From contig JAKFCO010000011.1 in assembly GCA_036676605.1 (NCBI GenBank), positions 39,933 through 103,932 of the forward strand: DNA of 64,000 nucleotides, given 5' to 3'. The stretch comes from Algoriphagus sp. GTDB lineage: Bacteria > Bacteroidota > Bacteroidia > Cytophagales > Cyclobacteriaceae. Of the stretch, positions 16,812 through 40,468 are shown in pieces. Both the position numbers and the translations under genes were made by a program. Under the pieces are notes generated by a model. That model had not been told where the DNA came from and did not search any database. It saw nothing but the letters and a program-made list of their open reading frames with translations. Each line of letters opens with the position of its first letter. The first letter of the stretch is position 1.

Positions 16812-16827
16812 GAATGGAGGATTAGAA

Positions 16828-22143: not shown

Positions 22144-22350
22144 ATGGCAGTAGAAAAAACAAACGGTTCATCCAGCCTTGTAGAGGTGATCGACCGTATC
22201 CTCGACAAAGGTGTCGTAGTTGATGCATGGGTAAGAGTTTCATTGGTAGGTATCGAACTGCTTGCAATTGAAGCAAGGATAGTCGTTGCCTCTGTTGAAA
22301 CATACCTTAAGTATGCAGAAGCAATCGGATTAACTGCTAAAGCCGCATAA
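22144..22350 (+). CDS. gvpA: Major gas vesicle structural protein GvpA
   Basis: [56 protein letters not shown] is canonical GvpA. Confidence 0.98.
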
Positions 22351-22491
22351 GGCATTTTGCAGTTACGCAGTTATTTTTGCTAAAACATCCTTCCAGGTCA
22401 AATACCCGAAAGCATGATTTACCAAAAATTTCTCTTTTCTCCAGAATTTTTCCTTTTCTCCAAAAGTAAAATCGAAACAAAACCATTATAT

Positions 22492-23160
22492 ATGAATACC
22501 CAGCCTGAATTAAATATAGATGGTTTTTTTGAAAACATTATAAGCTCCTACGAAACCCGGATTCAAAAAATTCAAACTGCTTTCCAAGCATCAGAAATCA
22601 TTACGGAAACATCCCACTCCCTGTTCGACAATGTCCATAATTCCTTATACGAACTTAAAAAGGAAAGAGACATTTTAAATTCCAGGCTATGCGAAACCCT
22701 GGCAAAAAATGGTTCCCTGCGTAAAAAAGATTACAATACGATGATGTCGGGCATTCTCGGCGCACTTGACGAAAAGGAAAGAGAAGCCGAAAGCCGGTTT
22801 TTGACTTTTATTGAAGCCCAGAAAGAGAATGCCCAATCGCTTAAAAATAGCCTGTTGGACATCAAAGATATTACCTCCCAAGACAACTGCGAAAAAATCA
22901 CCATCATCAAAGAGCAACTTTCTCAGATTTCAAAACTGCAGGAAATGAGAAAGGAAACGGTAATGAAGACATTCATGGATTTCCAGCAAATGCATAACAG
23001 AATAATGGAATGTCTTGAAAACTTACTTGAAAAAGGCGATCACATTCTTATACATGATATAAAAAAGATTAAAGATCAAATAATTCAACCCCGTAGGACA
23101 AGTACCCTACGGAGTAAAGAAATCAACCCCGTAGGACTAGCATCCAACAGGATAAACTAA
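22492..23160 (+). CDS. Hypothetical all-helical protein in the gvp operon
   Basis: Coiled-coil pattern, KNGSLRKKDYNTMM motif; start moved to MNTQPEL. Confidence 0.7.
   Translation: MNTQPELNIDGFFENIISSYETRIQKIQTAFQASEIITETSHSLFDNVHNSLYELKKERDILNSRLCETLAKNGSLRKKDYNTMMSGILGALDEKEREAESRFLTFIEAQKENAQSLKNSLLDIKDITSQDNCEKITIIKEQLSQISKLQEMRKETVMKTFMDFQQMHNRIMECLENLLEKGDHILIHDIKKIKDQIIQPRRTSTLRSKEINPVGLASNRIN
23085..23137. repeat. REP-like unit: 15-bp direct repeat with hairpin
   Basis: TCAACCCCGTAGGAC at 23085 and 23123; CCGTAGG-8nt-CCTACGG hairpin at 23091-23112. Confidence 0.65.
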
Positions 23161-23204
23161 CACAGGTAATCAAATATTCATTAACCAAATTAGGAGATAA
23201 AAAA

Positions 23205-24392
23205 ATGGGACTAGCATCAGAAATGAAAAACTTGAGTGAAGATATACTTGCTTCATTCAAACAACGCATCAGGGAAAACGAAGAGCTTGTAACCGATGTG
23301 CAGAAAACCCTCGACGGTTTTCGCAAGGACCACCAGGAGATGGCCGCTGTTTTAAACGCCAATGCTTCAGCCCTTAGAAAAGGACTTGTACATGGGGAAA
23401 AAGAACGACTGAATACCTTCAATGAATTAATGACCGGGATTCATCGCACAATCGCCTCTATACAGAAAGAAGTGGTAGCAATTCAAACTTCCACCTTCAA
23501 TATGATAAATGAATTCACAACCGACAGAGCACAAATGGCTGACGAGTTGAAGAAATTCTTTGCACAGGGCAGGGCCGGCAGGATGCAAAACGAAAAAAAT
23601 AGGATAAGGGAATTTGATGCCCTCATGAAAAACATCAACCAAGATATTAAAAGTATCAACGATGAGGTTTTAACGATTTTAAAAAATACGAGCGACATGT
23701 TAGACAGGTTTGAAAAAGAGCATCTGGAAATGTCGGCTGAGCTTAGAGCAGAACTGAGTAAAAACCTGGCTGAAAGAGTTGAATATACCAGAACATTGCT
23801 GAATAGGTTTCAGAAAAGATTATCGGAGATCGGCAAAGAAAGTCAAAAGGTGGCTCAAAAGCTGAGGAAAGATCTTGCCAATGGCGAAATAGAAAGGATT
23901 AACGACTACAATGGTATAATGAAAGGAATCCATGTGGCGGTAAAAGGAATCCGCAAAGAAGTAAAGGACGTTCAAAAAGCCACTACCGGAATGCTTGGGG
24001 GTTTTTCGCAAGACAGAGGGCAGGCCTCGGCTGAGTGGAACAAGATGAAGGACTCCATTGCTCAATTAAGGAAAACAGGCGTTGTTACATCGTCTAAGGA
24101 GGTAGTCGGGAAAGCTGAAAAAAAAGGGGAAGTGAAAATAGAACCCCCGACTGAAGCAGTAAAGAAAATCCTGGTTGAAGTTCTGCCAAAAGTGGAGTCC
24201 AAACCAGTAGTACCGATGACACTGGAAGAGAAAATAATGACTTATATCAGCAAGCATCCCAAAGGGGTAAAAATTTCGGAAATGGAAGAACCACTGGGAG
24301 AAACACGGATGAAGCTTGGGTTTATCGCTAAAGGTTTACTGGATCAAGGGAAAGTCCAAAAAATGGATAATATTTATTTCCCCTTAAAATAG
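23205..24392 (+). CDS. GvpC-like helical repeat protein with C-terminal winged-helix-like domain
   Basis: Position between gvpA and gvpN; three long imperfect repeats E-x-E/N-R...LM..I...I..EV...T..ML..F; C-terminal LEEKIMTYISKHPKGVKISEM...GLLDQGKV. Confidence 0.6.
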   Translation: MGLASEMKNLSEDILASFKQRIRENEELVTDVQKTLDGFRKDHQEMAAVLNANASALRKGLVHGEKERLNTFNELMTGIHRTIASIQKEVVAIQTSTFNMINEFTTDRAQMADELKKFFAQGRAGRMQNEKNRIREFDALMKNINQDIKSINDEVLTILKNTSDMLDRFEKEHLEMSAELRAELSKNLAERVEYTRTLLNRFQKRLSEIGKESQKVAQKLRKDLANGEIERINDYNGIMKGIHVAVKGIRKEVKDVQKATTGMLGGFSQDRGQASAEWNKMKDSIAQLRKTGVVTSSKEVVGKAEKKGEVKIEPPTEAVKKILVEVLPKVESKPVVPMTLEEKIMTYISKHPKGVKISEMEEPLGETRMKLGFIAKGLLDQGKVQKMDNIYFPLK

Positions 24393-24488
24393 CATCCGGG
24401 TACTGAGCGAAGTCGAAGCGCTAAACCAGTAACCAATTAATGTGTTATATCCATTTCAAAATAAAAGGCCCTGACAAAAATAATCAGA

Positions 24489-24780
24489 TGTGCATTTTGT
24501 AGTGGAAAGGGAAAGATCCCTTTGATTTTACACTCCAATATCAGATTGCCTGGTAAGTAACGACAGGGGCAGGTTAAAATGGACGAACCCCTAAAAAAAT
24601 GTGTTTTTTTGTTCGGGCACAGGCAAAAACCCACTTGGCACCAGGGTTCCGTGTATCGTATGTGGAGGAAAGGGAAATAATTACTGCGAAAGCAATATAA
24701 AATGTACTCAATGCAAAGGAACGGGGAAATCAAGCGATGGCCTGCCATATTCCCGTTGCGGAGACAAAGGCTTAATTTGA
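24489..24780 (+). pseudogene. Frameshifted DnaJ-type zinc finger (CxxCxGxG repeat) protein
   Basis: CAFCSGKG, FCSGTG, CIVCGGKG, CTQCKGTG and degenerate motifs across different frames; start uncertain. Confidence 0.75.
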
Positions 24781-24782
24781 CA

Positions 24783-24986
24783 ATGGACAATGGATTATAC
24801 CCAATGAACAATACCGGAAACAAAATCAGGAAGAGTTTGCTGAAAAGACAAGAAGCATTAAATAGGTTTAAAGCCAGAAAGGAGGCCTTTTTTCTGGCTA
24901 AGGAACAAATAACAAAGGATATTGAGGAGGCCAGAAACATCTGGATAAACACATTGAAACTACTCCCCAAACAGGAATTTAATTAA
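24783..24986 (+). CDS. Small basic helical hypothetical protein upstream of gvpN
   Basis: In-operon ORF (start 24783 or 24804) ending 21 nt before gvpN. Confidence 0.5.
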   Translation: MDNGLYPMNNTGNKIRKSLLKRQEALNRFKARKEAFFLAKEQITKDIEEARNIWINTLKLLPKQEFN

Positions 24987-25007
24987 TGATTTATCAAACC
25001 ATCAACC

Positions 25008-25925
25008 ATGAGCAATAACAATGAAATGAACACCGTACTTGAACTAAGGCCAATGTCAAATTTTGTAGAAACCGATTACATTAAAGACATTACCAGCCGT
25101 GGGCTTACTTACATAAAAGCGGGATTCCCGGTACATTTCAGAGGCCCGTCAGGAACCGGGAAAACAACCGTGGCTATGCATCTGGCTAGTAAAATCGGAA
25201 GGCCGGTGGTCATAATTCATGGTGACGCCGAGTACAAAACTTCCGATCTAATTGGCAGCGAACAGGGATATAAATATAAAAAGCTGGACGATAAGTTTAT
25301 TCACTCTGTCCATAAATATGAGGAGAATATGTCAAAGCAATGGGTGAATAACCGTTTGACTATCGCTGTTAAAAACGGATTTACCCTTATTTACGATGAA
25401 TTTACACGCTCCCGTCCTGAAGCAAATAACATCCTGCTTCCCATCCTGCAGGAGAGAATGCTGAGCACATCGGCTACAAAAGAAGAGGATTACTACATGA
25501 AGGTGCATCCTGAATTCCGTGCCATCTTTACTTCAAATCCTGAAGAGTATGCCGGCGTTAACCGGACTCAGGATGCCCTTCGCGACAGGATGGTTACCAT
25601 GGACCTCGATCATTTCGATTTTGAAACCGAGTTACAAATTACCATGGCAAAATCTGACCTTTCACTAAAAGATACTGAAACAATAGTTAAAATTGTCAGA
25701 GGCTTGCGAGAATCGGGGAAAACCGAATTTGACCCGACGATCCGCGGTTCGATTATGATTGCAAAAACACTGGCAACTTTAGACACCACCCCTTCGGAAT
25801 CCAAAAGTATATTCAGAAAAATTTGTCAGGATATTCTCACTTCCGAAACGAGCCGGATTGGCTCAAAAACCAATCAGGAAAAGGTAAAGATCATTGTTGA
25901 TGAATTAATAGAACAATATATATAG
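25008..25925 (+). CDS. gvpN: Gas vesicle AAA+ ATPase GvpN
   Basis: GFPVHFRGPSGTGKT, YDEFTRSRPEANN, FTSNPEEYAGV, QDALRDR. Confidence 0.96.
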   Translation: MSNNNEMNTVLELRPMSNFVETDYIKDITSRGLTYIKAGFPVHFRGPSGTGKTTVAMHLASKIGRPVVIIHGDAEYKTSDLIGSEQGYKYKKLDDKFIHSVHKYEENMSKQWVNNRLTIAVKNGFTLIYDEFTRSRPEANNILLPILQERMLSTSATKEEDYYMKVHPEFRAIFTSNPEEYAGVNRTQDALRDRMVTMDLDHFDFETELQITMAKSDLSLKDTETIVKIVRGLRESGKTEFDPTIRGSIMIAKTLATLDTTPSESKSIFRKICQDILTSETSRIGSKTNQEKVKIIVDELIEQYI

Positions 25926-25972
25926 TATCACGACAAAACGCACCATCAACCCATCATCAAATCCAAAATATT

Positions 25973-26287
25973 ATGCCAATATCAAGTGCAATTAAAGGAC
26001 TTCAGAGCATTAAATCAATGCAAAATGTCGTTAAATCTGGCATTCCCAACAAGGAGGAATCAGATTTCATAAAATTGTATATGTATGAAAAAGAAAGAAC
26101 CCGGTTGAAGAGTGAAGAAATAAGGATTTTACTAAGGCTTGAGATCATTCAAAGCAGGTTAAAGGAGATCCAGAATTATAATGATGAAAAAGCAGGACAG
26201 ATGCAGGTTCCTGAACCGCAGGAGCTCAATCAAAAAGAAACAGTAAAGGTAAAATCTGATTTTAAAACAATGTCAATAAACTACTAA
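25973..26287 (+). CDS. Coiled-coil gas vesicle accessory protein (GvpV-like by position)
   Basis: Follows gvpN, coiled-coil core; family assignment positional only. Confidence 0.45.
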   Translation: MPISSAIKGLQSIKSMQNVVKSGIPNKEESDFIKLYMYEKERTRLKSEEIRILLRLEIIQSRLKEIQNYNDEKAGQMQVPEPQELNQKETVKVKSDFKTMSINY

Positions 26288-26300
26288 AAAACAATGTATT

Positions 26301-26600
26301 ATGGCAGAACCTCCCCATTCAATTAACGCGGCCGGCCTTGCCGATATTCTCGAAAGAGTACTCGATAAAGGGATCGTAATTGCAGGCGATATCAAGATAC
26401 AAATTGCTGATATTGATTTGCTGACCATAAAAATCAGATTGCTGGTTTGTTCAGTTGACAAGGCCATGGAGATGGGCATCAACTGGTGGCAGGAAGATAC
26501 CTATCTCTCTACCAAAGCCAGGGAAAAAGCGCTGATGGAACATCAAGAAACTTTGGAGGCCCGTTTGGAAAAACTTGAGGCCATTAGCAAACCAGCTTAA
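26301..26600 (+). CDS. gvpJ: GvpA/J family minor structural protein (GvpJ-type)
   Basis: LADILERVLDKGIVIAGDI...DLLTIKIRLLVCSVDKAMEMGINWW. Confidence 0.85.
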   Translation: MAEPPHSINAAGLADILERVLDKGIVIAGDIKIQIADIDLLTIKIRLLVCSVDKAMEMGINWWQEDTYLSTKAREKALMEHQETLEARLEKLEAISKPA

Positions 26601-26628
26601 TTTTAATGAGCTAATAATTATCAATAAA

Positions 26629-27147
26629 ATGGAAAACGATAAAAATAAAGAAAAAAAAGACGAAGCCGCTTTTGATCTTTTCGGACTTGGTGGTTTGTTC
26701 AAGGGCATCGAAAAACTGGTTGACCTTGCCGGAAAGCTCGAAGAAAAGGGTGGAATCAGCAAGGAAGGCGAGATCAATTTTGATCATATCAAAAAAGGCA
26801 TGAAAGGTGTTTATGGCTTTACCATCAACACGGCAGGCGGAGGTACCCCGAAAGTATCGACTTTCGGAAATATAAAAAAAACGCCCGAAGGGCCCAAAGT
26901 GGATGAAGAACGCGAGCCGATAACTGACCTCTTTGATGAAAAAACCGAAGTTGTGATTATTGCTGAAATGCCCGGAATAGAGGAAAGCGACATCAAAATT
27001 GATCTGAAGGAAGATATCCTTGAAATTTCGGCAGCCGGCAAAAACCGTACTTACCACAAAGAACTACTGCTTCCTTCAAAAGTAAGCAGTAAAAATTTAA
27101 AGCACAAATTTACAAATGGCATCCTTGAGATTCGGATAAAAAAATAA
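26629..27147 (+). CDS. Hsp20/alpha-crystallin family protein (GvpH-like)
   Basis: IAEMPGIEESDI, NGILEIRI; start moved to 26629. Confidence 0.85.
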   Translation: MENDKNKEKKDEAAFDLFGLGGLFKGIEKLVDLAGKLEEKGGISKEGEINFDHIKKGMKGVYGFTINTAGGGTPKVSTFGNIKKTPEGPKVDEEREPITDLFDEKTEVVIIAEMPGIEESDIKIDLKEDILEISAAGKNRTYHKELLLPSKVSSKNLKHKFTNGILEIRIKK

Positions 27148-27152
27148 ATGTT

Positions 27153-28106
27153 ATGGCACTGACCGGTTTAGATAGCAACGAACTTAAACTCATTCTTTTG
27201 GGGGGAAAAGGCGGTGTAGGAAAAACCGGCTGTGCAACTGCAATAGCCATTGAGCTATCAAAAACCTTCAAAACAATTCTTATCTCACCATATCCAGCAC
27301 ATTCAGTTTCTGACAGCCTGGGAAAATTCATCGGCTTTAAGCAACAGCCTGTGAAAGGGGTTAATAACCTTACTGCTATTGAAATTGCAGCAGAAGTAGC
27401 ATTTTCAACATTTAAAGAGCAAAACCAGGCCCAACTTGAAAAACTTTTTGATACATCTACAAACCTTGATCAGGAAGACACCGGGCAATTGATGGATGTC
27501 TCTATCCCCGGCATTGATGAAATAATGAGCTTCAAAATAATCACTGATTTTCTTGAAGAAGGGAAATACGACAAATTAATAGTTGATACAGCCCCTACCG
27601 GCCATGCACTACGACTATTTGCGTCGCCAAAGCTGCTGGATGAATGGATTAAAGTTGCCGCACGGATATGGTGGAAATACCGCTATATGGTTACCAGTTT
27701 TTCGGGTTCCTATTAACAGGATGAGGTGGACGCATTTTTATTCAGCCTGAAAAAAATGGTTAAAAGAATCCAAAACCTGTTGCGGGATAAAACCAAATGT
27801 GAATTTATCCCGGTTTGTATCCCCGAAGCGATGGCAATCATGGAAACGGGCAGGCTGCTTGCAAATCCCGGCACATCTGAAATAATTGCGCAGCAGATAA
27901 TCGTGAACAATGTAATGGTTTCGGATGATGGTGATTTTTGCAAAAAAATAAAGGCTGGTCAATTACCCTATTTACAAGAGATTAAAGAAACGTTTAGCAA
28001 TTTAAATATAGTTGAAGTACCAAAATTTACTGAGGAGATCAAAGGACTGGAAGCATTGAATCAATTAAGGATGAGTCTTTTTGGAGATAAACCAATTAAC
28101 CAATAA
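27153..28106 (+). pseudogene. ArsA/Get3-family ATPase with in-frame TAA at 27714-27716
   Basis: GGKGGVGKT, PGIDE, VDTAPTGH; frame continues after the stop; STDPAH motif altered to SPYPAH. Confidence 0.85.
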
Positions 28107-28119
28107 ACCATCAGCCAAA

Positions 28120-30273
28120 ATGAAAGACGAAATAATATTACGTGTAAAAGAAGCACCGGTAAAGGATGTTGGAAGGGCAATTGCCAGGATTGATCCAAAA
28201 GATATGAAGTTGATGGGCTTGGAAAGTGGCGACGTGATCGCTATTGAAGGCAAACGTGCCACGCCGGTTAAGATCATGCCTTGTTATCCCGAAGACAGGG
28301 ATAAGCGTATTATTCAGATTGATGGAATTACCAGAGAAAATGCTCAGGCTGGGGTTGATGAAAAAGTGAAGATCATTAAAACTACCTGCCGTCAGGCTTC
28401 AAAAATAAAACTCAAGCCCGATACAAAATCCGGTTCTTTATTCAAGGCCGATGACGCGAAATACATTGGTTCGCTCATCAATGGCCTTTCGGTAACAAAA
28501 GGCGATAAAGTAAGAGCCACCCTCTTTGGTTCCCGGTCGGTTAATTATACAGTAACCGGTACCAATCCGGACGGGGTGGTACTGATACACCCAAATACCA
28601 CCTTTCAGCTTGAATTGACGAAGCAAGAGGGTGAAAGCAAAAGTAAGGTTTCGTATGAAGACATCGGTGGACTTGGAAATCAGGTTCAACGCATCCGGGA
28701 GATGATAGAACTGCCCTTGAAGTATCCTGAAATTTTTGAACGTCTTGGTGTTCAGGCTCCCAAAGGCGTATTTCTATATGGCCCTCCGGGAACCGGGAAA
28801 ACGCTCATCGTTAGAGCAGTGGCCCATGAAACGGATGCCTATTTTATCAACATTTCCGGCCCGGAGATCATGGGAAAATTTTATGGGGAAAGTGAAGGCC
28901 GGATAAGGAAAATTTTTGAAGAGGCTCAGGCACGTGCACCTTCCATCATTTTTATCGATGAAATTGATGCTATTGCGCCCAAGCGGGAAGATATGGGCGG
29001 TGAAAAGCAGGTTGAAAAGCGTGTTGTAGCCCAACTATTATCGCTTATGGACGGATTGGAATCGAGGGGGAAGGTCATTGTAATTGGCGCAACCAATATT
29101 CCTAATTCCATTGATCCGGCGCTGAGAAGGCCGGGACGTTTTGATCGCGAAATTTCTATCGCTATTCCCGATAAAAAAGGCAGGCTGGAAATTCTTCACA
29201 TCCATACCAGAGGAATTCCCTTGTCGATGGATGTAGATATGGAAAAACTGGCGGAAATCACCCATGGTTTTGTGGGCGCCGATCTGGAAGCTTTAGCCAG
29301 GGAAGCCGCCATGACTGCTTTGCGGAAAATACTCCCGCAAATCGATTTCGAGATGGCTGAAATCCCTTACGAACTTTTGATGTCGCTCGAAGTAACCATG
29401 GATAACTTTTTTGACGCGATGAAAGAGGTGGAGCCATCGGCCATCAGGGAGGTTTTCGTGGAAGTGCCCAATGTGAAATGGGATGATGTTGGCGGCCTTG
29501 ATGAAATCAAAGAGGCTTTAAAGGAAACTGTGGAGTGGCCCCTTATATATGACGAACTGTTTAAAAAAGCCGATACCAAGCCTCCAAAGGGAATTATCCT
29601 TCACGGGAAACCCGGCACAGGCAAAACCTATCTTGCAAAAGCGCTCGCAAGCGAGAGTGGAGTTAATTTTATTTCTGTAAAAGGTCCGCAGATTTTAAGC
29701 CGCTACATCGGTGAATCGGAAAAAGGGGTCAGGGAACTCTTCAGAATGGCAAAACAGGCATCGCCTTGCATCTTGTTTCTGGACGAAATAGACAGCCTTA
29801 CCCCCAGGCGTAGTAACGACAGTTCAGGTTCCGGGGTAATCGAAAGGGTGATTGGCCAGTTCCTTACCGAAATGGATGGCATTGAAGACCTGAAAGGGGT
29901 GATTGTGCTGGCCGCCACCAACAGAATCGATTTAATTGACCCTGCTTTACTAAGAAGTGGCCGGTTTGATCTGATATTTGAATTGCCGTTACCCGATGTA
30001 AAAACCAGGGAAAAAATATTCGGCATCCATTCCCGGAATAAACCCCTTGACAAAAAAGTAAACCTGAACAAACTGGCTCTGAAAACAGAAAACCTCACAG
30101 GATCAGATATCGAATTTATTTGCCGTAAAGCGGCCATGTTTTCCATTCGCGAATTGATTGATAAAAACAGCGGAAAATCGAACGAAGTTATCGGCGAAAT
30201 CATCATCCTGGAGAGTCATTTCGAAGAAGCGATTAGGCTGGTATTACAGCAAAACGCAACGAAGAAAGGTTGA
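28120..30273 (+). CDS. CDC48/p97 family AAA+ ATPase
   Basis: N-domain plus two AAA modules (GPPGTGKT/IDEID, GKPGTGKT/LDEID), ALRRPGRFDRE. Confidence 0.95.
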   Translation: MKDEIILRVKEAPVKDVGRAIARIDPKDMKLMGLESGDVIAIEGKRATPVKIMPCYPEDRDKRIIQIDGITRENAQAGVDEKVKIIKTTCRQASKIKLKPDTKSGSLFKADDAKYIGSLINGLSVTKGDKVRATLFGSRSVNYTVTGTNPDGVVLIHPNTTFQLELTKQEGESKSKVSYEDIGGLGNQVQRIREMIELPLKYPEIFERLGVQAPKGVFLYGPPGTGKTLIVRAVAHETDAYFINISGPEIMGKFYGESEGRIRKIFEEAQARAPSIIFIDEIDAIAPKREDMGGEKQVEKRVVAQLLSLMDGLESRGKVIVIGATNIPNSIDPALRRPGRFDREISIAIPDKKGRLEILHIHTRGIPLSMDVDMEKLAEITHGFVGADLEALAREAAMTALRKILPQIDFEMAEIPYELLMSLEVTMDNFFDAMKEVEPSAIREVFVEVPNVKWDDVGGLDEIKEALKETVEWPLIYDELFKKADTKPPKGIILHGKPGTGKTYLAKALASESGVNFISVKGPQILSRYIGESEKGVRELFRMAKQASPCILFLDEIDSLTPRRSNDSSGSGVIERVIGQFLTEMDGIEDLKGVIVLAATNRIDLIDPALLRSGRFDLIFELPLPDVKTREKIFGIHSRNKPLDKKVNLNKLALKTENLTGSDIEFICRKAAMFSIRELIDKNSGKSNEVIGEIIILESHFEEAIRLVLQQNATKKG

Positions 30274-30690
30274 TAGAGAGGTTGATAAGTTGAAAAAAGG
30301 ATAAAATATGAAATATTCATTTGAAAATCTGGAAGTTTGGCAAACGTCAAGAAAACTGGTAAATGATATTTATCAGGTGATCTCCAATTTTCCACAGGAT
30401 GAAAAATTTGGATTAACCAGCCAACTTAGAAGAGTTTCAATATCTGTGAGCAGTAATATCGCAAAAGGAAGTACCCGATGTAGTAAAAAAGACCAATCAA
30501 GATTTTACGAAATTGCTTTTGGTAGTCTTATAGAAGTTTTAAATCAATTGATACTTGCTACTGATTTGAAATTTTTACAAGAAAACCAATTAACCACACT
30601 CAGGGCAAAAATTGATCCTATTGGAAGAATGTCGAATGGACTTTATCAATCAACCTATCAACTCATAAACAAACTAATAAACCCATCAAC
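30267..30690. repeat. Complementary short-repeat flanks around the four-helix-bundle gene
   Basis: AGGTTGAT x2 plus AAGTTGA at 30267-30293; ATCAACCTATCAACT...CCATCAAC at 30649-30690. Confidence 0.65.
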
Positions 30691-30694
30691 ATAA
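30308..30694 (+). CDS. Four helix bundle protein (23S rRNA IVP-like family)
   Basis: FENLEVWQ, FPQDEKFGLTSQLRRVSISVSSNIAKG, AFGSLIEV. Confidence 0.92.
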   Translation: MKYSFENLEVWQTSRKLVNDIYQVISNFPQDEKFGLTSQLRRVSISVSSNIAKGSTRCSKKDQSRFYEIAFGSLIEVLNQLILATDLKFLQENQLTTLRAKIDPIGRMSNGLYQSTYQLINKLINPST

Positions 30695-30700
30695 AAAAGC

Positions 30701-31741
30701 ATGACAACAAAAGGAATATACATCTATGGGATTGTGCCGAACTTTTACAGTACGGATATGTTCAGATCATTGGAAAATTCAGGGGTTTATGCCATCCCCT
30801 TGCAAAACATATCTGCCATTGTTTCCGATAGGGAGAGTGCTCACATCGATTATTTAGACAGGGAAACCCTGGGATATTTGCTGGTTCATCATCAGAAAAC
30901 GATTGAAGGGCTCATGGAGAAAGGATTCAACATGCTTATCCCCATGCGGCTCGGTACGATTGTAAACTCAAAGGAAGAGGTTATTAAAATACTGGCAAAC
31001 GGCCATGATTTAATTATTGACACCCTGAAGAAAATTGAATACCTGACAGAAATTGACTTGGTGGTTACCTGGGCAGATTTTCCTGATCTCCTCACAGAGA
31101 TCGCTGGCCATCCCGAAATCATAGCAATGAAAGATAATATCCTGAAAAAGACAGACACACTTTCACAAATTGACCAGATGAAAGTAGGGATACTGGTTCA
31201 GTCAAAATTAAAAGAAAAAAACACAAAGGTTGAATTGAATATCCTGGATTCGTTGGCATCAATCAGTCTCGATATAAAAACACATGAGGTGATGAATGAC
31301 CAGATGGTAACCAATTCCGCGCTTCTTATTGACAGGAATAAAAAAGCAAAATTTGAACAGGTAATTGACCAGCTTGATGAAGAATACAAGGGGTTGTTGA
31401 ACTTCAAATTGGTCGGTCCTCTGCCGTGTTATAGTTTTTATACTATTGAAGTTAAAGAGCTGAATCCAGAGCATGTGGCACAGGCAAAAAAAGAACTTGA
31501 GCTGAGAGAAGAAACTTCGGAATCTGAAATAAAAAAAGCATATCTGAAAAAAGCAAAATTATTTCATCCCGATGCACATCAGGACAATGGCGACGAAGAA
31601 AACTTCAGCAGGATCAATAAGGCCTATCATACATTGCTTGATTATTCAGCGGGGGCAAGGCAATCATCGGAAGTGAATTTAATCTCTCTGGCAAAAGAAA
31701 AAGTGATTGAAAATTTGATTCTGGTAAAAATAAAGGAATAA
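30701..31741 (+). CDS. GvpL/GvpF family protein fused to a C-terminal J-domain
   Basis: GIYIYGI, VHHQKTIE, IPMRLGT, VGPLPCYSF; then EIKKAYLKKAKLFHPDA...INKAYHTL. Confidence 0.9.
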   Translation: MTTKGIYIYGIVPNFYSTDMFRSLENSGVYAIPLQNISAIVSDRESAHIDYLDRETLGYLLVHHQKTIEGLMEKGFNMLIPMRLGTIVNSKEEVIKILANGHDLIIDTLKKIEYLTEIDLVVTWADFPDLLTEIAGHPEIIAMKDNILKKTDTLSQIDQMKVGILVQSKLKEKNTKVELNILDSLASISLDIKTHEVMNDQMVTNSALLIDRNKKAKFEQVIDQLDEEYKGLLNFKLVGPLPCYSFYTIEVKELNPEHVAQAKKELELREETSESEIKKAYLKKAKLFHPDAHQDNGDEENFSRINKAYHTLLDYSAGARQSSEVNLISLAKEKVIENLILVKIKE

Positions 31742-31742
31742 T

Positions 31743-32516
31743 ATGCAACGCGACGGAAAGTACATTTATTGCATCATTGCATCGGATTACGACATCAATA
31801 TCGGGCCGATAGGAATAGGCGGACGTGGCGACCTGGTCTCCACCATCGGTTTCGATGGCTTGTGTATGGTGGTGAGCGACCATCCGCTCAGCAGGTTCGT
31901 AGTCAATCCCGAAAACATGCTGGCGCACCAAAAGGTGATCGAAATGGTGATGAAGGAATTCAGAAGTGTGATCCCAATCAGGTTTGGTACCATTGCGGCA
32001 ACCCCCGATGAAATACGGAACCTGCTGAACCGAAGATACAGCGAGTTTATGGAATTGCTCAGGCAGTTCGAAAACAAGGTAGAGCTCAATGTGAGGGGAA
32101 CCTGGAAAAACATGGGAATGATTTACAAGGAGATCGACAAGGAACATGCTGAGCTTCAAAAAATCAGAGCTGAAATAGAGAAAATTGATGATAAGGAAGA
32201 AAGAAACCTGAAAATTGCTGAAGCCGGAAATCTTGTAGCAAATGCGCTGATTGAAAAGAAAACGGAGGAGACAGAAACGATTATCGATGCTTTCCGCAAA
32301 TCGGTGTTCGAGTATAAACATAATAAAACGAGCGGAGATGCCATGTTTATTAATACCGCATTTCTTATGAACAGCGGCAGGGAGGTCGAATTCGACAACA
32401 TCATGACCGACATTGGCGCCAGATACGAGAATCGGAGCGATTTTGTATATACAGCCCCGTTGCCGATTTTTAATTTCATTGACCTGAAAATATTCCCCGA
32501 AAAATGGGAATTATAA
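31743..32516 (+). CDS. GvpL/GvpF family protein
   Basis: GKYIYCII, AHQKVIE, IPIRFGT, TAPLPIFNF. Confidence 0.92.
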   Translation: MQRDGKYIYCIIASDYDINIGPIGIGGRGDLVSTIGFDGLCMVVSDHPLSRFVVNPENMLAHQKVIEMVMKEFRSVIPIRFGTIAATPDEIRNLLNRRYSEFMELLRQFENKVELNVRGTWKNMGMIYKEIDKEHAELQKIRAEIEKIDDKEERNLKIAEAGNLVANALIEKKTEETETIIDAFRKSVFEYKHNKTSGDAMFINTAFLMNSGREVEFDNIMTDIGARYENRSDFVYTAPLPIFNFIDLKIFPEKWEL

Positions 32517-32538
32517 AATAATTTATATAACAACTGTT

Positions 32539-33321
32539 ATGAGCAACGAACTGGAAATACCGAAAGAAGGAAAATACATTTATGGGATTATCAGGCATGC
32601 AGGCCCCTTAGACTATGGTCCGATTGGCATGGGTAGACGGGCCGACTTGGTTTATGGGATCAATTTCAAAGATATCAGCGCCATCGTCAGTAATTCCCCG
32701 ATCATTCAATATGAAGCCAGAAGAGTGAACATGATCACCCATGAAAATGTACTTGAGGAAGTTATGAAACAATTTACGGTTCTTCCTGTTCGGTTTTCAA
32801 CCATCTCCGAGCATAATGATGACGCCGGAATCTTAAGAATCCTTGAAACAGAATATAAAAAATTCGATAGCCTGCTTAGTCAGATGGAAGGCAAGAAAGA
32901 ACTTGGACTCAAGGTACTTGCGCAGGAAGCTGCGATCTATGAAAGCATCATTGAAAAACATGATGAAATCAGGTCACTCAGAGGAAAATTGATAAACCTT
33001 CCTGCCGATAAAACCCATTACCAGCGCATGAAAATCGGCGAAATGGTCGCGGAAGCGCTTAAAAAGGAGACGGAAAATTATAAAAACAGTATCCTCGATG
33101 TTCTAAGCCCACTTACAGATGATGTGAAGATAAACGACAACTATGGAGAAATGATGATTCTCAATGCTGCATTTCTTGTTAAAAACACATCTGAACCCGT
33201 GTTTGACAAAGCGGTGAACGATTTGGATGAAAAATATGGCCGCTTTATGACCTTCAAATACGTAGGGACATTGCCACTATATAATTTTGTTAGCCTTGTA
33301 ATTAACACGAAAGGAGTTTAA
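32539..33321 (+). CDS. GvpL/GvpF family protein
   Basis: GKYIYGII, THENVLEEVM, LPVRFST, VGTLPLYNFV. Confidence 0.92.
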   Translation: MSNELEIPKEGKYIYGIIRHAGPLDYGPIGMGRRADLVYGINFKDISAIVSNSPIIQYEARRVNMITHENVLEEVMKQFTVLPVRFSTISEHNDDAGILRILETEYKKFDSLLSQMEGKKELGLKVLAQEAAIYESIIEKHDEIRSLRGKLINLPADKTHYQRMKIGEMVAEALKKETENYKNSILDVLSPLTDDVKINDNYGEMMILNAAFLVKNTSEPVFDKAVNDLDEKYGRFMTFKYVGTLPLYNFVSLVINTKGV

Positions 33322-33322
33322 T

Positions 33323-33559
33323 ATGTTTTTAATCGATAGCATACTGTTAGCCCCTTTAAAAGGAATTATTTTTATCGCAGAGAAAGTCAATGAGGTGATC
33401 AAGAAAGAAACGTCGGATGAAGGCACCATTAAAGAAAGGTTGATGGCATTGCAGCTGAAATTTGAGATGGATGAAATTGACGAAGAAGAATATGACAAAA
33501 GAGAAGATGAGATATTGAAATTACTGGAAAATATCAGAGCGGAGAAACAAAACAAATAG
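33323..33559 (+). CDS. gvpG: Gas vesicle protein GvpG
   Basis: MFLIDSILLAPLKG...LQLKFEMDEIDEEEYDKREDEIL. Confidence 0.92.
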   Translation: MFLIDSILLAPLKGIIFIAEKVNEVIKKETSDEGTIKERLMALQLKFEMDEIDEEEYDKREDEILKLLENIRAEKQNK

Positions 33560-33579
33560 TGAAATAAAAAAAAGAAAAA

Positions 33580-33852
33580 ATGAGTAATATTATCGATGTT
33601 AAAAAAGCAGTGGTTAAGTTCCTGAAAGAGAACATTAACGGTTATGACATAACGGTTATAAAAATTGAAAAAGTAAAAGAAATTTGGAATTCAGTGGCAG
33701 AAGTATATGAAGACGATTCATTTTTAAAATCAATGAACCTTCCGCCGAAAAAGGTACGGCTGTTCTATTCGGTCAGGATGGATGATAAACTTGAAATTAC
33801 ATCCTTCAAACGACATGATTCATTTGAAGGAATGGAAAGCACTGACGAGTAA
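33580..33852 (+). CDS. GvpO/GvpR-like gas vesicle protein
   Basis: W..VAEVYE...Y.V.MD....ITSFKR pattern resembles GvpO; in-operon. Confidence 0.6.
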   Translation: MSNIIDVKKAVVKFLKENINGYDITVIKIEKVKEIWNSVAEVYEDDSFLKSMNLPPKKVRLFYSVRMDDKLEITSFKRHDSFEGMESTDE

Positions 33853-33874
33853 TATTAATTAACGAATTCGTGTC

Positions 33875-34672
33875 ATGATAAATGATCTGATATATGTTTA
33901 TTGCCTATCATCACGCAGCCCTCTCGGGCTCGTACCCGACATGGAGTCCAGTGGCTTGGAATCTCTTATGTTCGATGATTTTTACGTGATCGTTAAATAT
34001 GTTTCTGAAAGTGAATTCTCTGAAGAAAACTTCAAAAAGAATTTATCAGATATTCTGTGGTTGGAATTAAATGCGCGGGAGCATATCAGGGTAATCACCG
34101 CGATCATGGAATATAGTACCGTAATCCCTTTTAAATTTGGCACTATCTATAATACTAAAGCCAGTTTGAAAAAATTCATCACGGATTATTCTGATTCATT
34201 GATCGAAAACTTCCATCATATCAAAGAAAAAGAAGAGTGGTCGGTTAAAATTTATTGCGATCGTAAAACACTGTGCGAACAAATTGACGAATTGAGCGAG
34301 GAAGCTGCTGCGCTGGAAAAGCAGATCATGGCAAGTTCGCCTGGGAAAGCATTTCTTTTAAAAATAAAAAAAACAGCCCTGATCGAAAACGAGATGGACA
34401 GGATTTGTAAGAACTACGGACAGGAGTATTATGATGAATTTAAAAATCTGAGCGAATCAACCGACCTCAACAACCTTCTTCCGAAAGAGTTTACCGAAAG
34501 AGAGTTTACCATGATCCTTAATGCCAGCTTTCTTGTAAGTAAAAACAAAGTGGCTGATTTTATTAGTACAGTCGACACACTGAGTAAAAAGGATGGAAAT
34601 TCCGGCATTTTTATTGAAGCAACCGGCCCCTGGCCACCATTTAGTTTTATCTCCATTAAAGAAAAACAATAA
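33875..34672 (+). CDS. GvpL/GvpF family protein
   Basis: LIYVYCL, EHIRVIT, IPFKFGT, TGPWPPFSF. Confidence 0.92.
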   Translation: MINDLIYVYCLSSRSPLGLVPDMESSGLESLMFDDFYVIVKYVSESEFSEENFKKNLSDILWLELNAREHIRVITAIMEYSTVIPFKFGTIYNTKASLKKFITDYSDSLIENFHHIKEKEEWSVKIYCDRKTLCEQIDELSEEAAALEKQIMASSPGKAFLLKIKKTALIENEMDRICKNYGQEYYDEFKNLSESTDLNNLLPKEFTEREFTMILNASFLVSKNKVADFISTVDTLSKKDGNSGIFIEATGPWPPFSFISIKEKQ

Positions 34673-34875
34673 TGCACAATAATGTAATCGACCGGTCTAA
34701 AGACATTACCATACTTGAATTGCTCGACAGAGTATTGAACAAAGGGGTCATCCTCAGCGGCGATATTGTAATTTCAGTAGCAGATGTCGACCTGGTATAT
34801 GTTGGCGTTAAGTTAATGTTAAGCTCAGTTGAAACAATGGAGCAATTAAGGTCCGGAAAGTCAGTAATTGTGTAG
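34672..34875 (+). CDS. GvpA/J family small protein (GvpS/GvpM-type)
   Basis: ILELLDRVLNKGVILSGDIVISVADVDLVYVGVKLMLSSVET. Confidence 0.88.
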   Translation: MHNNVIDRSKDITILELLDRVLNKGVILSGDIVISVADVDLVYVGVKLMLSSVETMEQLRSGKSVIV

Positions 34876-34877
34876 AC

Positions 34878-35633
34878 ATGGAAAAGATTATTTATTCCAT
34901 ATTATCCGTAAAAAGAAATCCTGAGAAGTTAAATGCTCTGTTGGTTGGGATGAAGGGCATTTCGGGTTCTGACTTATGTGCTGTTTCCTTTGATGAAATT
35001 ACTGCGGTTGTAAGCGATATTAATAGAACCAATTTAATCGCAGATAGATCCAATGCCATTGAATATGCAGGGGTGATCGAAAACCTTGCGCAACAATTTA
35101 CGGTTCTTCCCATGCGATATGGTTCCATAATGGAATCAACCGGATCAATTATTAAAATGCTCGAAAGAAATTATCATGAATTTCAACAAAATCTTCAGAA
35201 AGTTGAAAACAAGCGTGAATTCGGGCTAAAGATCTTTTGTGATTCCGAAAAATTACAGGCAGAACTGAGGGCAAAATCAGAGACCCATACCACTACACCT
35301 GCCAAACATGCCCCGGAAATCAAAAATTCAGTATACAGGGATTGGGTGAATAAAAAACTTAAGGAACATAGGCTTGAGGAATTGCTGCTAACATACGTTG
35401 ATTCGGTTATTGTAAAGATCACTGGATACCTTGACCGATTGAACGCGGTCAATAAATTCAAAAAAATGGCGACTGCTACGAATATAATCGATGCGGTTTT
35501 TTTACTTGATAAGGAGCGGAAAGATGCTTTGATTCAGGCGGTTGAAATTTTACAAAACCAATATCCAGGGCTAAACTTTGTCCTGACCGGGCCCTGGCCT
35601 CCGTATAATTTTGTGGAAATCAATATAAAGTAA
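34878..35633 (+). CDS. GvpL/GvpF family protein
   Basis: LPMRYGS, LTGPWPPYNFV. Confidence 0.88.
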   Translation: MEKIIYSILSVKRNPEKLNALLVGMKGISGSDLCAVSFDEITAVVSDINRTNLIADRSNAIEYAGVIENLAQQFTVLPMRYGSIMESTGSIIKMLERNYHEFQQNLQKVENKREFGLKIFCDSEKLQAELRAKSETHTTTPAKHAPEIKNSVYRDWVNKKLKEHRLEELLLTYVDSVIVKITGYLDRLNAVNKFKKMATATNIIDAVFLLDKERKDALIQAVEILQNQYPGLNFVLTGPWPPYNFVEINIK

Positions 35634-35641
35634 TCAGCACG

Positions 35642-35986
35642 ATGAGTGAAAATAAAATATTATTTAATACCGGATCGCTTGATGAGCTTTCGGAGGAGAT
35701 CGGGAAACTAACAAACAATGAAGAGTCCAAGCTAAAGTTAGGCCCAGACAATGCTGATTCCGGGCTGGCAAAACTGGTATTAACCCTGGTTGAACTCATT
35801 CGTAAATTGATTGAAAAGCAAGCCATGCGCAGAGTTGACGGCGGATCATTGACTGAAGATGAGATTGAACGGCTCGGCGAAACATTAATGAAACTTGAGC
35901 TGAAAATGGAAGAGCTGAAAAAGCACTTTAACCTCAACGACCGCGACTTAAACATCAATCTCGGTCCATTGGGCGATTTAATGTAA
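35642..35986 (+). CDS. gvpK: Gas vesicle protein GvpK
   Basis: GLAKLVLTLVELIRKLIEKQAMRR...IERLG...DLNINLGPLG. Confidence 0.95.
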   Translation: MSENKILFNTGSLDELSEEIGKLTNNEESKLKLGPDNADSGLAKLVLTLVELIRKLIEKQAMRRVDGGSLTEDEIERLGETLMKLELKMEELKKHFNLNDRDLNINLGPLGDLM

Positions 35987-36003: not shown

Positions 36004-37641
36004 ATGAAAAAGGATGACAAATCAGAAGCAGCAATCCTACGCCAAAAGGCGGAACAAGAATTAATCATTGCTAACAAAGAACCTCACTCTCAAAACGAGT
36101 ACAAGAAAGCAAAGCAAGCACTTCTCCGATCGGAGAAGAATTTCCGTCGTTCAATTTCAGAATCTCCTTTGGGCATACGTATTGTTTCTGTCGATGGAAA
36201 AATAATTTATTCCAATAAAGCCTTCCTTGATATTTATGGATTCAACAGCCTTGAAGAAATTGAAAGTATACCAGCAATAAATCTACACACTCCAGAAAGT
36301 TATGCGAAACATCAGGAAAGAAAAGAGAAAAGAAAAAATGGACATGAGGTATTTGATTATGAGATAAGTATTATATGTAAAAACGCGGAAATCCGCCATG
36401 TAAAAGTTTGGAGAAAAGAAGTTCTGTGGAATGGGATCAAGCATTATCAGGTAATTAATCTAAATATTACGGAACAAAAGAAGCTAATCATAGATCTGAT
36501 GGCAGCCAAAGAACACGCCGAAGAAAGCGACAGGCTGAAATCTGCATTCCTGGCCAATGTGAGTCACGAAATACGTACTCCCATGAATGGCATTCTGGGT
36601 TTTGCCGAAATACTTAAAGAACCAAAGTTAACAGGTAAAGAGCAGCAAGAGTATATCAGAATTATTGAGAAAAGCGCTGCCCGTATGCTCAATATCATCA
36701 ACGATATTGTTGATATTTCGAAAATAGAATCGGGCCTGATGAAAGTTAATGCGAAGGAGTCGAATGTAAACGAGCAAATCGAACACATTTATACCTTCTT
36801 CAAACCGGAGATTGAAGGGAAAGGAATGCAGTTTTTCTTTAAAAACAGCTTGCCGTTAAAAGAAGCCATCCTAAAAACAGACCACGAGAAAGTCTATGCC
36901 ATTCTCACCAACCTGGTTAAAAATGCAATTAAATTCAGCGATAAAGGTTCAATCGGATTGGGGTATGAGAAAAATGGGGAATACTTTGAGTTTTTTGTAA
37001 AAGACACCGGCATCGGTATTCCTAAAGACAGACAAAAAGCTATTTTTGACCGTTTTGTCCAGGCCGACATCAGCGATAAAAGAGCTTTTCAGGGAGCAGG
37101 ATTGGGATTATCCATTTCGAAAGCTTATGTGGAAATGCTGGGTGGCAAAATTTGGGTAGAAAGCGAAGTGAGTAAAGGCTCAATATTTTATTTTACCATT
37201 CCTTATAATGCAGAATTGGAAGAAAAAAATGTCATTCAGAATGTTATTTTGCCTGAAGGAGCAGATAATCAGATTAAAAACCTGAAAATATTAATTGCCG
37301 AAGACGATGAATTATCGGCAATTATTCTTGGCAATATAGTTCGACTATACGGCAAAGAAGTCATGAAAGCAGGAACCGGTGTGGAAGCGGTTGAAGCTTG
37401 CCGCAATAACCCTGACATCGATTTGGTTCTGATGGATATTAAAATGCCCGAAATGGACGGAGATGAAGCCACCAGACAAATACGTCAATTTAACAAAGAT
37501 GTGGTTATTATTGCCCAAACAGCTTTTGCACTGACTGGAGACCAGGAAAAGACAATAGCGGCAGGATGCAATGATTATATTTCAAAACCCATTAAGAAAG
37601 ATAAAATAATGGAGTTAATGAAGAAATATTTCCAAAAATAG
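36004..37641 (+). CDS. PAS-HisKA-HATPase-REC hybrid sensor kinase
   Basis: FLANVSHEIRTPMNG, NLVKNAIKF, GAGLGLS, LMDIKMP. Confidence 0.93.
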   Translation: MKKDDKSEAAILRQKAEQELIIANKEPHSQNEYKKAKQALLRSEKNFRRSISESPLGIRIVSVDGKIIYSNKAFLDIYGFNSLEEIESIPAINLHTPESYAKHQERKEKRKNGHEVFDYEISIICKNAEIRHVKVWRKEVLWNGIKHYQVINLNITEQKKLIIDLMAAKEHAEESDRLKSAFLANVSHEIRTPMNGILGFAEILKEPKLTGKEQQEYIRIIEKSAARMLNIINDIVDISKIESGLMKVNAKESNVNEQIEHIYTFFKPEIEGKGMQFFFKNSLPLKEAILKTDHEKVYAILTNLVKNAIKFSDKGSIGLGYEKNGEYFEFFVKDTGIGIPKDRQKAIFDRFVQADISDKRAFQGAGLGLSISKAYVEMLGGKIWVESEVSKGSIFYFTIPYNAELEEKNVIQNVILPEGADNQIKNLKILIAEDDELSAIILGNIVRLYGKEVMKAGTGVEAVEACRNNPDIDLVLMDIKMPEMDGDEATRQIRQFNKDVVIIAQTAFALTGDQEKTIAAGCNDYISKPIKKDKIMELMKKYFQK

Positions 37642-37842: not shown

Positions 37843-38526
37843 ATGAAGACACTGATATATGTTCCCATCATTCATTCAAGTGCCGACATGGGCTCCCTGG
37901 GGGAAGAACTTAAGCGCAAAACTGTTTCCGAACTTGGGGAAAATAAATGGCAAAAGCACGCCGATACTGTAAATGGTTACTGGGAAGCAATTGAATACTA
38001 TTTTGAAAACATTGATATCGCTATCAAGGGGATAAAAATATATCAGGACGGAATGTTTGTTGATGGTGATATGGCAATGAAAATCATAGACGAAGGCATC
38101 AAATCAGGAAGCAAAAATTCTGAAATTGTTTCAAAACTTATCGGTCGGGGGGCAATACTTATCAAGACAGAAGATTTTAAAATGGTCAAAGATGAATACG
38201 ATGGACTTCAATCTGTCTTAAAATCAAAAACCAATATTAAAAAACTCTTTCTACTGCTCAGGTATAAAATTTTAAAACCCATATTTTTATTGAGGAGGGA
38301 TAATTTTATTGCCGGCAGGATAGCTGAAACGTTGGACAAAAATGAAACAGGAATTCTTTTTATCGGGGCTTATCACAATATCATAAAAAAACTGCCCAAA
38401 GATATTACTGTGATTGAATTGAAAGAAATCGCAAAAATCCGAAAATATCAAAGAGCAATTCAATCTGATTCAAAAATTAAAACACTGCAACTTGAAAAAC
38501 TTACGGAATATCTGATTCAAAAATGA
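37843..38526 (+). CDS. Hypothetical protein with TraB/Tiki-like motifs
   Basis: N-terminal PIIHS and C-terminal RDNFIAGRI...ILFIGAYH. Confidence 0.55.
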   Translation: MKTLIYVPIIHSSADMGSLGEELKRKTVSELGENKWQKHADTVNGYWEAIEYYFENIDIAIKGIKIYQDGMFVDGDMAMKIIDEGIKSGSKNSEIVSKLIGRGAILIKTEDFKMVKDEYDGLQSVLKSKTNIKKLFLLLRYKILKPIFLLRRDNFIAGRIAETLDKNETGILFIGAYHNIIKKLPKDITVIELKEIAKIRKYQRAIQSDSKIKTLQLEKLTEYLIQK

Positions 38527-40452: not shown

Positions 40453-40468
40453 GAATGGAGAATTTAAA

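Follow-up and report, generated by a model that had tools for sequence, protein, structure and literature searches.

We examined a 64,000-nucleotide stretch of an Algoriphagus sp. genome (contig JAKFCO010000011.1, positions 39,933 to 103,932; hereafter the window) and found that the middle of its gas vesicle (gvp) operon probably represents a conserved accessory module, specific to this type of gvp cluster. The module comprises an Hsp20, a Get3-like ATPase of the ArsA family, a Cdc48/VAT-type AAA+ ATPase and GvpF-J, a GvpF/L-family protein that carries a J-domain; a Bacteroidia subtype adds a zinc finger with six CxxCxGxG motifs, and some clusters add an Hsp70. We propose that these proteins serve as helpers for the hydrophobic subunits of the GvpA family, and that the Get3-like ATPase and the zinc finger form an optional branch, which would have been lost in the window. 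A preliminary description of the window had placed five chaperone elements within this one operon. Their strand and coordinates are borne out, and Hsp20, Cdc48 and GvpF-J are intact, but the zinc-finger and ArsA genes are pseudogenes. Judged from its sequence, the window is thus a natural knockout of both the Get3-like and the zinc-finger gene, in which Cdc48, Hsp20 and GvpF-J have remained under selection.

The association with gas vesicles was examined in an evenly sampled set of 401 Bacteroidota genomes, counting Cdc48 above its curated cut-off. gvpN was found in 33 genomes and Cdc48 in 34; both occur in 32, mostly about 3 kb apart and on one strand. Three genomes are discordant. In two of these the cluster is cut, the contig ending inside hsp20 (G238) or starting at gvpJ (G298), and in the third (G116) Cdc48 is of a different kind, with 48% identity, and lies outside a gvp setting. 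A survey of loci, with one genome per species, yielded 387 Cdc48 relatives, of which the best 80 loci were examined. These come from freshwater-lake metagenome-assembled genomes of Bacteroidales, Prolixibacteraceae, Lentimicrobiaceae, Ignavibacteria and Chlorobiaceae; the scope is Bacteroidota including Chlorobia and Ignavibacteria. gvp genes are present in 79 of the 80, the exception being a 2.4-kb contig fragment. Co-occurrence of the chaperone genes with gvp in other genomes had been named beforehand as a check, and both surveys bear it out.

The order GvpJ-Hsp20-ArsA-Cdc48-GvpF-J-GvpF-GvpF-GvpG is invariant in these loci, its stretch from Hsp20 to GvpF-J across about 70 species-level loci, and the gaps are short (medians of 5 nt between Hsp20 and ArsA, and of 1 nt between GvpF-J and the next gvpF). 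The gene order of the window operon recurs in the related loci L001 and L002 and in about 80 others. Among loci that could be assessed, Hsp20 is intact in 69/69, GvpF-J in 70/70, ArsA in 70/72 and the zinc finger in 47/62; the zinc finger is missing from all Chlorobiaceae-type clusters. Because Cdc48 and gvpN coincide almost perfectly and the order is invariant, we consider these genes a helper set dedicated to gas vesicles and not chance neighbors. To this extent the private proteostasis pipeline of the preliminary description stands, as a conserved and gvp-dedicated set, but that set is incomplete in the window and is not obligatory.

Several observations weigh against this reading. The positives of the co-occurrence sample span 11 genera of a single phylum, and the counts are not phylogenetically independent. 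GvpF-J is lacking in one Chlorobiaceae genus (L005-L008), several lineages, the window among them, have dead or deleted ArsA and zinc-finger genes, and one family, f40, has Cdc48 away from gvpN, often with internal stop codons. To our knowledge the gvp clusters of Halobacterium, Anabaena, B. megaterium and Serratia have not been described with Cdc48 or J-domain genes, and the module is in that sense not obligatory.

The f40 loci (G130:C15, G362:C90, G186:C19, G118:C13, G194:C7; L112, L115, L021) have Cdc48 near an arsA homologue, with two opposite-strand genes between. In five f40 genomes the Cdc48 match has at least one internal stop, often a single TGA; these could be pseudogenes, cases of recoding, or alignments running across two open reading frames (ORFs).

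Table 1. Features of the gvp operon and its downstream neighbors in the window (window coordinates).
Feature	Coordinates	Strand	Product	State	Evidence or remark
gvp operon	22144..35986	+			Pfam and NCBIfam matches; tightly packed, gvpA to gvpK
Unassigned ORF	22414-23160		248 aa		no family
DnaJ-type zinc-finger gene	24471..24780	+		pseudogene	three-frame translation; alignment to intact 103-aa L001 homologue
Small coiled-coil ORF	24804..24986	+	~60 aa	intact	follows zinc-finger gene in relatives; homologous to 59-61 aa ORFs of L001 and L003
Unassigned ORF	25973-26287		104 aa		no family
Hsp20, alpha-crystallin domain	26629..27147	+	172 aa	intact	PF00011, 28.4 bits (cut-off 20.8)
Single-domain Get3/ArsA-type ATPase	27153..28106	+		pseudogene	in-frame TAA at 27714-27716
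Cdc48/VAT-type double-ring AAA+ ATPase	28123..30273	+	716 aa	intact	TIGR01243, 911 bits (cut-off 803)
23S-rRNA-IVS/bAvd-like four-helix-bundle gene	30308..30694	+			PF05635, 120 bits; between cdc48 and gvpF-J
GvpF-J (GvpF/L family with J-domain)	30701..31741	+	346 aa	intact	PF06386, 161.9 bits; PF00226, 50.2 bits (cut-off 27.8)
J-domain of GvpF-J	31466..31669	+			helices at residues 256-266, 274-288 and 299-323 (DSSP of AlphaFold2 model); HPD at nt 31565-31573
Unassigned ORF	33580-33852		90 aa		no family
PAS/HisKA/HATPase/receiver hybrid kinase	36004-37641				inserted between gvpK and 227-aa ORF
Unassigned ORF	37843-38526		227 aa		no family

GvpF-J had been described as a GvpF with an HPD J-domain, and this is confirmed: the J-domain is complete, matches PF00226, and has its HPD at residues 289-291, where the tripeptide is invariant in 80/80 unique homologues. 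Clustered at 90% identity, the homologues form more than 120 groups; nearly all are of exactly 346 aa, and every one has both Pfam domains. An AlphaFold2 model built on a 26-sequence alignment scored a mean predicted local distance difference test (pLDDT) value of 88 and a predicted template modeling (TM) score of 0.79; the J helices have pLDDT of about 87-91 and a last strand lies at residues 339-345. Foldseek matched the model to GvpF structures (4QSG/6L5D, E 1e-13, target TM score 0.69-0.71) and its J part to the J-domain of T. thermophilus DnaJ (4J80/4J7Z, probability 1.00, 62 columns, 29-31% identity). As a beta-strand follows the J helices in the model, the J-domain may loop out from the C-terminal sheet of GvpF. 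The joining of an HPD J-domain to a domain that binds a client or a structure is also known from HscB/Jac1 (IscU delivery), auxilin (clathrin) and Mycoplasma TopJ (terminal-organelle assembly), where it directs a general Hsp70 to a single structure of the cell, and TopJ models do match the J part of GvpF-J weakly; GvpF-J differs from all these in that its partner domain has the GvpF/L fold (4QSG-like).

A single DnaK gene is found in the host genome, on contig C21. In six loci, including those of cultured Flavobacterium (F. bomense, LS1P28 and others), an Hsp70 of ~600 aa stands at the end of the gvp cluster; none is found there in the window. At L009:7700-7711 and in other Chlorobiaceae-type loci, cdc48 and gvpF-J share one frame, parted by a TAG and two codons, with no evidence for read-through. 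A Cdc48-GvpF-J fusion suggested by open frames of ~1064 aa in Chlorobiaceae was rejected, since the TAG separates the two genes.

Cdc48 of the window has the full domain complement of its family (CDC48_N, CDC48_2, two AAA and two AAA_lid_3 domains, forming N, D1 and D2), and among solved structures it is closest to Thermoplasma VAT (5G4F, E 9e-217). The Walker A/B motifs are GPPGTGKT/IIFIDEID in the first ring and GKPGTGKT/ILFLDEID in the second, and the pore loops are KFYG (D1) and RYIG (D2); catalytic and pore-loop motifs are kept in 96 loci. The protein thus resembles VAT and archaeal Cdc48 (5G4F, 5VC7) in its N-D1-D2 architecture, in the Walker motifs of both rings and in its aromatic pore loops, but it is bacterial, is encoded only inside gvp clusters and is without the HbYX tail: no C-terminal HbYX is present in Cdc48 of the window, which ends in QQNATKKG, or in relatives, which end in QNATKK or NILN. 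HbYX serves for docking to the 20S proteasome in archaeal members and does not define the family; we know of no 20S proteasome in Bacteroidota. Neither Cdc48 nor ArsA has a second copy in the host genome.

Hsp20 also matches PF17886 (ArsA_HSP20, an Hsp20-like domain fused to ArsA proteins; 22.7 bits against a cut-off of 22.5), and it scores 139.5 bits with the NCBIfam model NF041800 for 'archaeal Hsp20', just below the cut-off of 140. Kinship with haloarchaeal GvpH was considered and discarded, there being no match at E up to 10 and hits only to the HSP20, ArsA_HSP20 and CS models. GvpH is a non-essential accessory protein that prevents aggregation of GvpM (PMC9501494). Like the proposed module, it is a non-essential anti-aggregation helper encoded in a gvp cluster, but no sequence relation to Hsp20 of the window was detected.

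The arsA gene is interrupted by a stop codon, and its two ORF halves match PF02374 at positions 2-168 and 191-303; TIGR00345 is matched as well. At the position of the TAA, L001, L002, L104 and L105 have CAA or CAG (Gln). The window ArsA is off consensus at 8 of the 104 columns conserved at 95% or above, against a median of 0 in other sequences, and one of the changes is D47Y in the invariant STDPAHS motif. The combination expected of a Get3/TRC40/ArsA ATPase, an intact frame together with the deviant Walker A and with DPAHS (switch I) and DTAPTGH (switch II), is found in relatives such as L001 and not in the window. At the zinc-binding CxxC of the Get3 dimer interface, L001 has CGFC where M. 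jannaschii Get3 has CDFC; the window has GDFC, its first Cys lost.

Intact arsA relatives encode single-domain proteins of ~315 aa, and the L001 copy is closest to Chlamydomonas ARSA1 and to the Get3 proteins of M. jannaschii and M. thermautotrophicus; by sequence, then, they differ from the two-domain arsenite-pump type. Deviant Walker A (GKGGVGKT) and switch II (DTAPTGH) are common to the gvp ATPase and Get3 (M. jannaschii 3UG6, yeast Get3, Chlamydomonas ARSA1), but the gvp ATPase differs in always having Hsp20 before it and Cdc48 after it, and no Get1/2-type receptor gene is recognizable in the cluster.

The zinc-finger gene is more heavily damaged. Only remnants of CxxCxGxG remain, split over two reading frames, and the translatable gene with paired CxxCxGxG that marks a DnaJ-type zinc finger is not found in the window copy. 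Relative to L001, the closest complete relative, it has lost its start codon (ATG to CTG at 24471-73), has three 1-nt deletions, a TAA at 24558-60, an additional T in the run at 24604-10, and a Cys to Tyr change in the last motif. Intact relatives encode ~103 aa with six invariant CxxCxGxG motifs, and two score 32.7 and 36.3 bits with PF00684 (cut-off 32.7). A model of the intact protein has pLDDT of 89; its nearest Foldseek matches, the DnaJA3 finger, anti-TRAP and BSD2, are not significant (E at least 0.095). Repeated CxxCxGxG is what the intact gvp protein shares with BSD2, which acts in plant Rubisco assembly, with Bacillus anti-TRAP and with the cysteine-rich domain of DnaJ. It differs from these in having six motifs, not four, and in being a protein of 103 aa; in the window the gene is dead.

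These lesions could be verified in L108, an independent Logan assembly of a sequencing run that is 99.56% identical in nucleotide sequence to the window over 16.8 kb. L108 carries the same arsA TAA and the same broken zinc finger, and it has private changes in precisely these two genes: a 1-nt deletion that shifts the arsA frame, T8 in place of T7, an extra G and a 7-nt duplication. In L104 and L105, which are 94-97% identical to the window in nucleotide sequence, ArsA is intact at 320 aa. Because the lesions are shared with L108, which adds others of its own, and ArsA is intact in L104/L105, they are genuine and recent, not assembly noise. Two ways of saving the genes were considered and rejected. 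Recoding of the arsA TAA does not fit the radical changes at invariant positions or the extra frameshift in L108. For the zinc-finger gene, neither an error in sequencing the T-run nor programmed frameshifting there fits the lesions, at least six separate ones including the lost start, or the further differences of L108 at the same homopolymers. The zinc-finger pseudogene has 36 differences per kb between the window and L108, against ~3-4 per kb elsewhere. As it has more lesions, the zinc-finger gene probably died first, followed by arsA through the change of CAA to TAA.

Since the nonsense mutation is common to both, all differences between the window and L108 post-date the arsA stop. In the intact cluster genes 32 of them are synonymous and 15 nonsynonymous (P = 6e-10 in a binomial test with a neutral expectation of 75%), an omega of about 0.14. 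Cdc48 alone has 6 synonymous and 0 nonsynonymous differences, and Hsp20, Cdc48 and GvpF-J pooled have 10 and 3. ArsA has 0 synonymous and 8 nonsynonymous differences in addition to the frameshift (Fisher P = 0.0004). Over the longer distance to L001 and L002, the ratio of nonsynonymous to synonymous rates (dN/dS) of Cdc48 is 0.05-0.07, that of Hsp20 about 0.10 and that of GvpF-J 0.21-0.27, and core gvp genes are in the same range. The intact genes are under purifying selection; although its Get3-like and zinc-finger members are gone, the operon is thus still being kept.

The loss of both genes is not unique to the window. Two other clusters, L054 and L061, lack a functional zinc finger and ArsA, in these cases by clean deletion, and in a tree of Cdc48 the three stand in separate places; the window is sister to L002, where both genes are present, with 99% support. 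The zinc finger alone is lost in three clusters, and ArsA is lost with the zinc finger kept in none, giving a table of 48/0/3/3 (Fisher P = 0.0008, on small numbers). GvpF-J is intact in all of these clusters. The preliminary description had supposed that DnaJ was split here into a zinc-finger protein and a J-domain tethered to GvpF. This finds no support: GvpF-J is intact after loss of the zinc finger, in three lineages together with loss of ArsA, and it is present in Chlorobiaceae-type clusters, which have ArsA and in no case a zinc finger, and this argues against the zinc finger as the missing half of a split DnaJ. If the zinc finger has a partner, the joint losses point to the Get3-like ATPase as a better candidate than the J-domain, a pattern that is suggestive only.

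Part of this association has been described. Castillo and Saier (2010; PMC2963123) described gvp clusters that include hsp20 and homologues of arsA, from Polaribacter irgensii, Pelodictyon luteolum, Geobacter uraniireducens, Anabaena/Nostoc and an acidobacterium; they proposed a chaperone role for Hsp20 and, for the ATPase, that it energizes one of the steps of biogenesis. Those clusters are like the window in having an ArsA-family ATPase and Hsp20 inside Bacteroidetes/Chlorobi gas vesicle operons, but the ArsA discussed there is a two-domain protein of ~600 aa, whereas the gvp ATPase here is single-domain, Get3-like and ~315 aa long, and neither Cdc48, the J-domain fusion, the zinc finger nor Hsp70 is mentioned. 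The statement in the preliminary description that no integrated role was known thus needs correction for ArsA and Hsp20; on Cdc48, the J-domain fusion and the zinc finger nothing was found. A full-text literature search, of incomplete coverage, found no paper linking gas vesicles with bacterial Cdc48, a J-domain or Get3. As far as this search shows, Cdc48, the J-domain fusion and the zinc finger in gvp clusters are new relative to the literature, and only the ArsA and Hsp20 association was already published.

We also examined the remainder of the operon. It begins with gvpA, two coiled-coil genes, the zinc-finger pseudogene, the ORF of ~60 aa, gvpN (TIGR02640, 350 bits), the 104-aa ORF and gvpJ; continues through hsp20, the arsA pseudogene, cdc48, an intervening sequence (IVS)-type gene and gvpF-J; and ends with two gvpF/L genes, gvpG, the 90-aa ORF, a further gvpF/L, a gvpS-type gene, another gvpF/L and gvpK. 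The ORF of ~60 aa has a dN/dS of 0.21 relative to L001, and a family search with it gave no match. The 248-, 104-, 90- and 227-aa ORFs keep their position in nearly all related gvp clusters, the 104-, 90- and 248-aa ORFs also in Chlorobiaceae, and make up an unnamed part of the core of this cluster type. Downstream, gvpK and the 227-aa ORF adjoin in L001, an Hsp70 takes the position of the hybrid kinase in L002, and kinases end the cluster in many relatives. A zinc-ribbon (DZR-type) gene of 62-100 aa lies between gvpG and the 90-aa ORF in L001 (12884-13114) and about 35 other loci, and is absent from the window. Minus-strand ORFs of 148-235 aa that overlap operon genes have no family matches and were rejected as spurious. 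Promoter and terminator scans of the operon gave counts no higher than in shuffled sequence, and an Rfam search of the window at 21-39 kb gave no match.

The IVS-type gene is an insertion and no conserved member of the module. It is absent at the corresponding spot in L001, L002 and L104; in the last, and in L105, a 76-nt remnant is all that is found (L104:4265-4340, matching window 30425-30500). An IVS-type gene flanks cdc48 in 7/80 loci (L027, L030, L035, L042, L047, L076, L086), at varying spots either before cdc48 or between arsA and cdc48, and the host genome has at least eight further copies. It looks like a small mobile or repeatedly inserted gene that favors the neighborhood of cdc48.

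The gvp cluster as a whole was probably acquired horizontally, as judged from its composition and relatives. G+C content is 37-41% at ~18-40 kb, against 42-46% in the flanks; direct repeats of ~0.8 kb and 79% identity (~16713-17509 and ~40356-41164) bracket this low-GC segment; gvpN and Cdc48 are absent from all sampled genomes of the host's genus, family and order; and the window Cdc48 is 96% identical to a Flavobacterium Cdc48. These four points together make transfer likely. Homology to same-genus genomes ends near 16.8 kb, and the direct repeats and this break are consistent with an island integrated beside a duplicated gene end. An empty-site test in same-genus genomes gave no clean empty site: the left flank is conserved only to ~16.8 kb, and the right flank was not found. 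A repeat of ~100 nt at 14560-14665 has more than 25 copies (75-95% identity) on many contigs of the host genome and of its congener G409, and is probably a dispersed repeat or similar to a miniature inverted-repeat transposable element.

GvpF binds monomeric GvpA and has been proposed as its chaperone (PMC9501494, PMC11445434), and GvpA made without assembly factors is proteotoxic in E. coli (PMC12848028). The module proposed here would act on such subunits as follows. The GvpF moiety of GvpF-J would bind the very hydrophobic GvpA-family subunits, and its HPD J-domain would trigger ATP hydrolysis by DnaK, here the housekeeping copy, so that the client is clamped or handed on. Hsp20 would act as an ATP-independent holdase for the hydrophobic subunits, and the Cdc48/VAT hexamer would thread and unfold mis-assembled or aggregated wall protein for re-use. 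The Get3-like ATPase and the zinc finger would form an optional branch, shielding or delivering hydrophobic segments. The roles in shielding, extraction and DnaK recruitment, and the client of each chaperone, we infer from what is known of the families.

A more specific version of this scheme is tentative and, in our estimation, unlikely to be right as a whole. In it, Cdc48/VAT, GvpF-J and Hsp70 would be an ATP-driven machine that feeds GvpA into the wall or pulls it out, and the zinc finger and Get3-like ATPase would be a mutually dependent and dispensable branch for capture and delivery of hydrophobic Gvp subunits. We know of no motor for insertion or removal of GvpA at the wall apart from GvpN. 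Were this version true, a partnership between the zinc finger and Get3 would have its first genetic hint in the three independent joint losses.

The same genes could instead serve removal and turnover, with Cdc48 extracting wall protein from vesicles that are collapsed or unwanted, and GvpF-J with Hsp70 dismantling the lattice in the manner of auxilin, lowering buoyancy and recycling GvpA. Conservation and synteny speak for this as they do for helpers of assembly, and dismantling is equally compatible with the gene content; Cdc48/VAT proteins are extractors and unfoldases, here with aromatic pore loops in both rings, and without a proteasome-docking tail the product would be released and not degraded. 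Auxilin provides a precedent for a lattice-bound J-domain adaptor that recruits Hsp70 for disassembly. However, the genes lie in the middle of a biosynthetic operon with very short gaps, so that the chaperones are made together with the structural proteins, and the J-domain sits on GvpF, which published work links with nucleation and with the early binding of GvpA monomers (PMC9501494, PMC11445434). We regard a turnover module, the main alternative, as doubtful. It is less probable still that the window cluster is a transferred island in decay, no longer functional, whose surviving chaperone genes are idle. Two pseudogenes within 4 kb, the IVS-type insertion between cdc48 and gvpF-J, the low GC, the diverged bracketing repeats and the lack of gvpN and Cdc48 in sampled relatives of the same genus, family and order would suit such a relic. 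Yet all other cluster genes are full length, the 32:15 ratio accumulated since the arsA stop is that of selected genes while the dead genes have elevated, all-nonsynonymous change, and L054 and L061 deleted both genes cleanly and keep the rest.

The idea of a general stress cassette, an archaeal-style hsp20-AAA unit that merely travels with gvp islands, starts from the closest characterized relatives of Hsp20, the Get3-like ATPase and Cdc48, which are archaeal or eukaryotic, and from the mobility of the cluster; Pyrococcus offers a known example of an hsp20-AAA+ heat-shock operon. We consider it very improbable, as Cdc48 is essentially never found without gvp in the 401 genomes, its place in the operon, between gvpJ and gvpF, never varies, a covalent fusion joins one member to GvpF, and no second Cdc48 or ArsA is available to the host for general needs.

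A helper module dedicated to gas vesicles bears on how the extremely hydrophobic GvpA stays soluble and enters the growing vesicle. As acoustic reporter genes in other hosts, gas vesicles are held back by poor folding and proteotoxicity (PMC12848028, PMC11445434), and a cluster family with its own unfoldase, holdase and Hsp70 adaptor offers candidate parts for better heterologous assembly. The module also provides a bacterial setting with an obvious candidate client for both Cdc48/VAT and a Get3-like ATPase. Cultured Flavobacterium strains that have the full set, with an Hsp70 in the cluster, make the hypothesis testable at the bench, and the window, as a natural double knockout, ranks the parts of the module by dispensability and hints at which pairs may work together.

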